Assembly (NCBI GenBank): GCA_038087875.1 | Contig: CM075989.1 | Span: 1 to 64,000 of the forward strand | DNA: 64,000 nucleotides | Direction: 5' to 3' | Origin: Malacoraja senta | Taxonomy: Eukaryota | Part shown: positions 55,530-58,500 of the stretch, piece by piece | Numbering within the stretch: position 1 is the first letter of the stretch | Layout: the number at the start of each line of letters is the position of its first letter | Position numbers and translations under genes: made by a program | Notes under the pieces: generated by a model | Told to the model about the DNA's origin: nothing | The model's input: the letters and a program-made list of their open reading frames with translations, nothing else | The model's database searches: none

Positions 55530-58500
55530 TGCGTTAATGTCTTCTGTCGTGGCTGTATCCAAGTGGGTGAACCTCTTCACAAGAGGTATAACACCCGGGG
55601 ATGTTTGCATTCCATGTTTCCCTCCCTTTCTCACCGTCACCCACCTTCTCTCTTCCAGTACCTTAGGTGTAACAATCTTACTGTAGGACTTGTCGAGGAA
55701 CGACTCAGTTTCTCGGACGAACCTGAGGTCATCCACTTGCTTCTCCAGTTCCCCAACACGGTCCTTCAGGAGCTGTACCTGGATGCACTTCTCACATTTG
55801 TAGTAGCCAGAGGCACCAGCAGTGTCCTTGACCTCCCACATACTGCAAGCATCACACTGAATCAGGTTGCCTGACATCTCCTTCTTTCATCTCTCCCTCT
55901 CCAGCGTTTTGCGTAGCACTCATTTATTCCCCCTCATTAATCCCCCTCATTTATTTATAAGCCTCTTTTTGCTGAGTTCTTAGCTTCTTGCGCTCCGAGA
56001 ATTGAAGTCTGAGCCTATCCAATCAATAAAGCTGTGGCCCATGAATCTTTGGCACTTCATCGTGCATCTTCACCACACTCCTTACAGCTTACTGCCATCC
56101 TTCCCAAAGTAGAGTGATCACAACGGAACTCAACAGTGGAAATGTGGCATCACCATGTCCTTCTACAACCATAAAATAACATCCCCATCTATGTCCAAGA
56201 CACCTTTCGCGCTCTTAGTCTCCTTCATGACTTCCATTTTCCAGGCCCCTACTCCCTCATCTTCACCCTGGATTTCCAGTCACTCTACACCTCCATCCCC
56301 CACCAGGAAGGTCTTAAAGCCTTCTGTTTCTTCCTCGACCGCAGAACCCTGTCTAGTAATACCCTCCTCCGCCTAGCGGAGCTGGTCCTTACCCTCAACA
56401 ACTTTTCTTTTGACTCCTCCCATTTCCTCCAAATCCATGGCGTAGCTATGGGCACGCGCATGGGCCCCAGCTATGCCTGCCTCATTTAAGGGTATGTAGA
56501 ACAATCCTTGTTCGAGGCGTACCTTGGCCCTACCCTCAAACTCTACCTCCGCACATTGACGACTGCATTGGTGCGATCTCCTGCACCCATGCAGAACTCA
56601 CTGACCATCTATTTCACCATTAACTTCCATCTGGCACACAAATTCATCTGGTCCATTTCCGACATCTCCTTCCCGTTTCTCGACCCCACTATCTCCATCG
56701 CAGGTAACAGACTACAGACCGGCATCTACTACAAACCCACTGACTGCCATAGCTATCATGACTACATTTCTTCGCACCCTGCTTCCTGAAAGGACTTCCG
56801 CTGCTCCCAATTCCTCGGTCTACGCCGCACCAGGATGAGGTTTTCCAAAACAGGGCATCGGAGATGTCCTCATTCTTTAGGAAACGGGGGTTCCCCTCCT
56901 ATTATAGATGTGTCTCTCACCAGGATGTCCTCAATATCCCGCAGTTTCGCCCTCACTACCCATCCCCCTACTCGTAACAAGGACAGAGACACCTTGCCCT
57001 CACCTTCCACCCCATCAGCCGTCGCATACAACATATAATCCTCCGACATTTTCGCCATCTCCAATGGGATCCTACCACTGGCCACATCTTTCCATCTCTT
57101 TCCCTTTGTGCTTTCCGCAGAGACCGTTCCTTCCATAACGCCCTGGTCAATTCGTTCCTTCCCACCAAAACCGCAGGAGATGCAACACCTGTCCCTTTAC
57201 CCCCCCTCGACTCCATCCAAAGACCCAATCACTATTTCCAGGTGAGGCATCTCCTCCAATCTCATCTAGTGCATCCGCTGCTCCAGGTGTCCATTTCTCT
57301 AGACCAAGCGATCACTTCGCCCAACACTTTTGCTCAGTTTGCACTAACCAACCCGATCTCCCGGTGGGTCAGCACTTCAACCCCCCTCCCATTCCAAATC
57401 TGACCTTTCTGGCCTGGGCCTCCTCCATTGTCAAATTGAGGCCCAGTGCAAATTGGAGGAACAGCACGTCATATTTCGCTTGGGTGGTTTATACCCCAGC
57501 GGTATGAACATTTACTTCTCTAATTTCAGATGTTCCTTCCTTTCTCCTTCCTTCCCCTCCCGTTCCCAGCTCTCCCTCAAGCCTACTGTCTCCCCCTCTT
57601 CAGTTATTTTTCCCACCCCCCCACATCAGTCTGAAGAAGGGTTTCAACCCGAAACGTCGCCTCTTTCTTCTCCCCATAGATGCTGCCTCACCCGCTGAGT
57701 TCTCCCAACAGTCTAGTCTACCATCTATTTATCCAGCATCTGAAGTTCTTTCTTTAACATCCCAACATCTGTGGTCAATATCCTGAGTGACAGCGGCCAA
57801 AGCCTTCGCTGTCACCAGATCTACTCGTTACGCCACTTCCGCGGATCTATCATCAAATCACACTGCTCTCCAAATCACCCTCCGAAATCGGACAGAGAAG
57901 TTGAGAAAGGGATAATAGTGTGGCGGAAAGTAACCCAGTGGCCGTTTTTAACAGAGGGACGCTCTCTCCATTTCATGACTATCAATGCCACCCATATGGA
58001 AGATTTTGCAGATGATCCCTGGAGAGCTGAGCACAAAACCCGACTCTCAGTCATTTACGTCCAGCGCATGTGAGCGATGCCTATACTGCAGCCCATATCA
58101 GCAATCCGCGATTTTCTCCTTATAAACTATACTCTGAATTGGCTATTGCAAAATAATATTAAGGGAAAGCAAAGCAGTGAGCAATTATTGTTTATCAATT
58201 CAGCTTTTCACACTGTTTTTCTTGACAATCAGTTGATATCAGACCCAAACGAAACGTAGTTCCCTGGTGAAAGATTCGTTGCGCTTTACTTGATGCAACA
58301 TTTCTCCTCACCGAAGCACGCTCCGCTTTCGTTAAAGCCATCGGGGCAGGGGTTCAGACATGTTCCCCTCTGAAGGCTGCACTTATCTATACGACACAAA
58401 ATACAAGATGAATTATCAGTTGCTAGACAAGGGAACTAACTTTGAAACTAATGAAGCTTAAATTTCAGGGCCATTAATCCCGGAGGGGCCCCTGAAGCGA

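Follow-up and report, generated by a model that had tools for sequence, protein, structure and literature searches.

Copy B, the second beta-defensin exon in this stretch of DNA, raises the question of whether it belongs to a complete gene encoding a newly N-glycosylated peptide or is a remnant left behind in a duplicated array. It is located within the window, by which the whole analysed stretch of 64,000 nucleotides is meant (C13:1-64000, the start of a 25.5-Mb contig termed C13 in an assembly of 1.94 Gb). The reading favoured here, to which a probability of roughly 0.8 is assigned, is that copy B is a leaderless pseudogene fragment, most likely untranslated, which belongs to a tandem array close to where the contig begins and changes by neutral drift.

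The copy B exon and the array around it

Copy B occupies 58286..58386 on the minus strand and consists of 101 nt with a phase-1 start, 32 codons and a TAA stop, and its six cysteines, read on that strand, are spaced as C-x6-C-x3-C-x9-C-x5-CC. The exon scores 25.1 bits against the Pfam family PF00711 (Defensin_beta), for which the cut-off is 21, and this score, together with the seven-exon array described below, upholds its initial description as an exon of beta-defensin type that belongs to a tandem expansion of recent date. Alignment with exon 2 of gene A (38752-38852 vs 58286-58386, both minus) revealed differences at 2 of 101 sites, as had been claimed. One is the AAG to AAC change at 58331 (K to N, minus strand), which gives the N-E-S sequon and is found only in B among the seven copies; the other is the ACC to ATC change at 58293 (T to I, minus strand), which occurs in all three copies without a leader (B, D and F) and in none of the four complete genes. 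The preservation of acceptor, cysteines and stop was likewise confirmed, the AG, all six cysteines and the TAA being present in B, and the cysteines and stop being unchanged in both exons. The acceptor of B (58387..58416, minus), consisting of a pyrimidine tract and TAG, looks intact, and its -3 position (58389) reads CAG in A vs TAG in B, a change absent from the earlier description. The exon-2 peptide is near neutral in charge (+1 in A, 0 in B). Downstream of the exon, GATAAA at 58191..58196 (minus) is the likely weak polyadenylation signal of B, in the place of ATTAAA in A and E and AATAAA in the paralogs on another contig, C16. Loss of ATTAAA had been considered as an orphan-specific lesion and was dropped, since GATAAA occupies the same polyadenylation position in the complete genes C and G.

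The array was surveyed over the first 264 kb of the contig (the window plus C13:64001-264000), in which no N gap occurs. Protein, DNA and local searches identified seven mature-peptide exons on C13, and the same 264 kb contains four leader exons. The seven copies of exon 2 start at 38852 (A), 58386 (B), 74000 (C), 100638 (D), 160385 (E), 179706 (F) and 195398 (G) of C13, while the leader exons at 47882, 83024, 169230 and 204218 each lie ~9 kb upstream of exon 2 of A, C, E and G, respectively. The genome-wide DNA search with exon 2 returned the seven C13 copies at 98-100% identity and six matches at 67-77% on other contigs, and no near-identical copy was found outside C13; the corresponding search with exon 1 gave four matches at 99-100%, all on C13, plus two C16 matches at ~70%.

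Gene A serves as the reference for a complete unit. Its mature-peptide exon 2 (38752..38852, minus) is identical at all 101 sites in the four complete genes, and its coding exon 1 (47801..47882, minus) encodes a hydrophobic leader and a short propiece and ends in a GTAAGT donor, the phase of which (phase 1) is that of exon 2. A TATAAA box, absent from the B block, is situated 77 nt upstream of the ATG (47954..47959, minus), and ATTAAA at 38656..38661 (minus) is the likely polyadenylation signal. The intron of the C13 defensin genes measures ~8.9 kb. The sharing of one identical exon-2 peptide by four complete genes likely points to dosage, not diversification. A 'subtelomeric' label for the location was rejected as unsupported, no telomere repeat arrays having been found in C13:1-264000.

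Several repeats were also observed in and around the window. Long open frames of reverse-transcriptase/RNase H-like character lie at 21070-24303 on the minus strand, in a region repeated at C13:134-146 kb and 233-245 kb, which may be a DIRS-type retroelement. Within the intron of the defensin unit, 58560-59900 holds an AT-rich transposon-like remnant, possibly hAT-like, and a tetranucleotide repeat tract (40641-40977 / 60548-61020) varies in length between copies.

The missing leader and the origin of the leaderless copies

A second signal exon had been predicted near 67.8 kb from the duplication offset; it is not there, and the site is occupied by the downstream flank of gene C. No exon-1-like sequence was detected in the interval that separates B from the following exon 2, where the best blastn-short E was 0.63 and tblastn matches were chance-level only, nor in the intervals B-C, D-E and F-G. 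Moreover, a generic leader-exon scan (ATG, hydrophobic core, phase-1 donor) gave no candidate upstream of B, D or F, and in a control interval it recovered the true exon 1. An upstream start codon and signal peptide exon of its own is thus absent for B and present for A, C, E and G, and since this leader exon is lacking, B is classed, on the assembled sequence, as a beta-defensin-derived gene fragment and not a complete gene. The original prediction of a second complete paralog consequently gives way, on the genomic side, to an orphan exon, exon 1 and the TATA box both being missing in the assembly.

The duplicated block that carries B comprises the 3' flank, exon 2 and most of the intron (55530..64000 in the window, minus; 94-97% identical to 35989-46497), and it runs on to C13 position 66562, where it stops 1.3 kb short of exon 1, its intron copy tracking the gene A intron up to A-coordinate 46497. 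At 66562/66613 the block switches to a match of the downstream flank of A (30979 onward), which is the 3' flank of C. At this junction 54 nt match repeat tails elsewhere in the region, with up to 98% identity and 24 matches in all; we take the insert to be a LINE or SINE tail and infer a 5'-truncated retroelement at the breakpoint. Copy F possesses the same junction (187760/187811) with substitutions of its own, and the sharing of the junction by the separately diverged B and F argues against a misjoin. In B, which arose by DNA duplication, the intron and flanks are kept and the promoter and first exon are gone, as in a duplicated pseudogene fragment. Copy D lost the same elements differently, an 822-bp deletion (A-coordinates 47630-48451) having taken out exon 1 and the TATA box; the deletion is clean, with its joint at C13:114699/114700. 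On a larger scale, a ~121-kb duplication with blocks 97-98% identical links A, B, C with E, F, G, and a third copy of parts of this block is found at ~230-249 kb of C13. The spacing is 15.6 kb from B to C and 59.7 kb from D to E.

A tree of the flanks, built from 3455 ungapped columns, has the topology ((B,F)97,D)99, (C,G)96, A, E, in which the leaderless B, D and F form one clade with 99% support; flank divergence is 1.19% for B/F, 1.16% for C/G and 1.71% for A/E. This topology rules out that B is an allelic haplotype of A. Because T to I is present in all three orphans, it was inherited from the leaderless clade and predates B, so that of the two changes only K to N is private to B.

The order of events that best accounts for these features would begin with the loss of exon 1 in an ancestral copy, of which D retains the 822-bp deletion. 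In the ancestor of B and F, a retroelement-associated deletion, or an equivalent partial duplication, would have taken ~44 kb more, a figure obtained from the B-C vs D-E spacing if D-E represents the ancestral unit, and the later ~121-kb duplication would have made B and F. N-glycosylation needs entry into the endoplasmic reticulum. Since B has no exon 1, and hence neither start codon nor signal peptide, its N-E-S sequon would never reach the secretory pathway; B would be neither translated nor secreted, and the sequon is probably never made; it would gain importance only through transcription and secretion of B. Function would lie with the four complete genes, whose likely effect is a higher dose of a single conserved peptide. 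The birth-and-death expansion originally proposed fits the array, with the amendment that B, most likely a pseudogenic fragment without exon 1, would stand for the 'death' half of that process, caught before any disabling change.

Two frameshifts in copy F had been considered as proof that the B/F lineage is dead, and this argument was dropped, because the patch of single-base indels in which they lie looks like a consensus error. Copy F carries six private single-base insertions in ~510 columns, whereas elsewhere, over 4025 columns, each copy shows 0-3 single-base indels, and 24 of the 27 B/F indels fall within B-coordinates 58293-60423, the last 2.1 kb of the 5-kb alignment. The patch in F relative to B, at C13:179.6-181.8 kb, is a probable local consensus error.

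Substitution patterns, sequencing runs and rival readings

The differences between exons A and B do not exceed what chance would produce: divergence of the exon (2.0%) equals that of the duplicated 3.9-kb A/B block, where 83 of 3899 aligned sites differ (2.1%), and two non-synonymous changes out of two are expected about 60% of the time. With 77.3 of the 96 coding sites of exon 2 being non-synonymous and 18.7 synonymous, P is 0.65, or 0.59 with transition weighting, which substantiates the original caution that two sites are too few for positive selection. A sequon can be created by only 4 of the 288 possible single changes and is thus uncommon per change, although it was singled out after the fact. 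Along the orphan lineages, all four substitutions are non-synonymous (neutral P 0.34-0.42), and no non-synonymous excess over the neutral expectation was found in B or in the orphan clade as a whole. The four include the private changes K to N in B, N to K in D and A to V in F. For none of the orphan-lineage substitutions to strike a cysteine or make a stop, P is 0.37. Variable sites in exon 2 numbered three across B, D and F vs 2.6 expected, counts small enough to accommodate selection as well, and the rate of change of the orphan exon matches that of its flanks, which is consistent with neutrality.

Among the complete genes A, C, E and G, no variable site was observed in exon 2 vs 3.07 expected (Poisson P = 0.046). 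The longest identical run among them, 209 columns, spans this exon, and 319 of 3495 sliding windows (9%) are equally invariant. These values suggest modest constraint on exon 2 in the complete genes (P 0.05-0.09), which could also be the product of gene conversion. Exon 1 of the four complete genes differs by one synonymous change and one V to A.

Independent sequencing data comprised 24 listed runs, 23 of which contain part of the stretch and two at least half of its words, with none on record as RNA. In run X1, which like the others is available as contigs, so that contig depth is not copy number and rare variants are dropped, the depths downstream of exon 2 were 31 for the A type, 30 for the E type, 68.8 for the C/G type and 70.8 for the orphan-clade type, and diverged, presumably single-copy paralog contigs had depths of 27.7, 30.1 and 34.5. 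The one X1 contig that spans exon 1 reached 113.6, while the depths near exon 2 add up to 195.2, so that the ratio is 0.58 (4/7 = 0.57). These X1 depths fit real paralogs and a deficit of exon 1. Run X2 gave variant proportions like those of X1 (2.9, 6.4 and 5.3) and no exon-1 deficit, with 16.3 at exon 1 vs 16.6 near exon 2. Neither the joint of the 822-bp deletion of D nor the D/F variant at 57937 was seen in the X1 or X2 contigs; these samples thus appear distinct from the individual that was assembled, and polymorphism may affect the array or the loss of the leader.

The X1 and X2 contigs lie off the coding variants of B, the B exon being covered by just one diverged paralog contig, from X1, and run X24 yielded no matching contig. 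This defensin-like contig, at 58269-58325 with a depth of 27.7, has a loose-end 26-mer with no exact match in the assembly, and it is a paralog missing, polymorphic or diverged relative to the assembly. In X12, a run from another organism whose RNA status is a guess, a 253-nt contig of depth 2.8 lies at 58187-58340 and has the Thr codon. It covers only the 3' part of the exon, and two of its nine differences are unlisted, so the K/N site is unreadable; no X12 sequence was found over exon 1. The contig ends near the GATAAA position. An in-frame TGA seems to precede the second cysteine in its loose end, which would make the X12 homolog a pseudogene or a low-depth error.

Several observations count against the pseudogene reading, namely the intact frame, cysteines and acceptor of B the four non-synonymous substitutions out of four in the orphans, and the undiminished exon-1 depth in X2. 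It is conceivable, if improbable, that gene C, which lies upstream, uses B as an alternative last exon and thereby furnishes a secreted variant with N-E-S and Ile. A transcript from exon 1 of C (83024) would sometimes pass the weak polyadenylation signal of C and splice to the B acceptor 24.6 kb away, for which B retains acceptor, phase, six cysteines and stop, while C and G, directly upstream of B and F, both have GATAAA where A/E have ATTAAA and the C16 paralogs AATAAA; SPAG11, described in the cited part of PMC1524968 as an alternatively spliced fusion of two beta-defensin genes, offers a precedent. However, exon 2 of C itself comes first with an equally good acceptor, AATAAA follows past the stop (483 nt in C, 679 nt in G), and the orphan exons change at the flank rate, whereas those of the complete genes do not. 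The corollary, that the array yields one conserved defensin together with low-level variants, one of them N-glycosylated in the cysteine core, via alternative last exons, would be just as improbable; if true, it would make alternative last exons a splicing route to defensin diversity outside mammals.

Somewhat more doubtful is the possibility that the ~121-kb repeat (A, B, C vs E, F, G) consists of two haplotypes placed in tandem, in which case B and F would be alleles of a single orphan locus, the true copies would be fewer, and B would still lack a leader. Long blocks of 97-98% identity at a ~121 kb offset near the contig start, the low flank divergences of the pairs B/F, C/G and A/E, and the low-quality patch around F speak for it. 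On the other side stand the uninterrupted 264 kb, the third copy of block parts, the absence of near-identical copies on other contigs, and the X1 depths, 30-31 each for the A and E types, like the presumed single-copy paralogs, with 68.8 for C/G. Least credible is a full second gene, shaped by diversifying selection, that encodes an N-glycosylated defensin. The intact exon, the two non-synonymous changes and the rarity of sequon-creating mutations would agree with it; the lack of exon 1 and TATA box, divergence at the flank rate, the P of 0.59-0.65 and the age of T to I, which is older than B, contradict it. This explanation is refuted in the present assembly by the missing exon 1 and could survive only if the assembly were wrong at the 66.56-kb junction, which is present in two copies. 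The neutrally drifting pseudogene fragment is thus retained as the preferred reading of B.

Relatives and known defensin systems

Contig C16 harbors at least six diverse six-cysteine exons, at 8.56, 8.57, 10.11, 10.23, 10.27 and 10.87 Mb, which have a shared 5' region, charges from -1 to +10 and no sequon, and for four of the six a leader exon was located by scan. Further matches at 67-70% were noted at C16:10.10 and 10.37 Mb and on C1276 and C1162. The closest C16 relative, at 10.866 Mb, shows 76% identity across exon 2 together with the 3' flank, and given this identity it likely represents the lineage that gave rise to the C13 array. Since the young C13 array (38752-204218) lies on a different contig than the main C16 set, a move from that lineage followed by dosage amplification is suggested. 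In the four C16 paralogs with a located exon 1 the intron measures ~0.8-2.8 kb, vs ~8.9 kb on C13.

The C16 set may represent an undescribed cartilaginous-fish defensin set. Searches of the open literature, subscription journals being outside the scope, turned up no title or abstract opening devoted to such genes in cartilaginous fish and no paper related to orphan defensin exons; a 2019 review (PMC6795676) regards shark antimicrobial peptides as little studied, and its section on these peptides, as far as it was available, names no beta-defensin for sharks or skates. With regard to databases, the first Atlas match for exon A was a beta-defensin cluster (0.86), which is a lead only; the PDB sequence search returned beta-defensins weakly (E 0.58-0.64) and R-spondin-2 at chance level, and homologs of the 40-residue frame sought in a 5.8-billion set at lengths of 22-70 gave no candidate.

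The finding itself is unremarkable, B most likely being a pseudogene fragment of young age among arrayed defensin genes, and its practical lesson is that searches with exon 2 only overcount defensin genes, since seven exons correspond to four genes here. A side result of modest use is the recognition of two groups, a recent, near-neutral array of four genes on C13 and, distinct from it, the diverse C16 set.

Compared with known systems, the cysteine spacing of B (6-3-9-5-CC) falls inside the avian beta-defensin consensus C(4-7)C(3-6)C(7-10)C(5-6)CC given in the cited part of PMC4571063, and the array resembles avian AvBD clusters in combining lineage-specific duplication with pseudogenisation, as the same part reports for AvBD1, 3, 7 and 14. 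The complete genes have two exons, for leader and mature peptide, the layout given in the cited part of PMC6098084; B, in contrast, lacks the leader exon. Vertebrate beta-defensin genes form tandem clusters, among them the avian AvBD and giant-panda DEFB clusters. At 1-2.6% divergence, the C13 array is very young, and the exon-2 peptides of its complete genes are not diversified but identical and, unlike strongly cationic beta-defensins, near neutral. SPAG11, according to the cited part of PMC1524968, can pair a single leader with various downstream exons that stem from two ancestral defensin genes; B, however, shows no sign of constraint. A further analogy is a general class, the unprocessed (duplicated) pseudogene fragments in segmental duplications. 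With these, B shares a retained intron and 3' flank, the loss of promoter and first exon, a breakpoint at a repeat and, apparently, evolution at the flank rate, the difference being that B is so young that it has neither acquired a stop nor been deprived of a cysteine.
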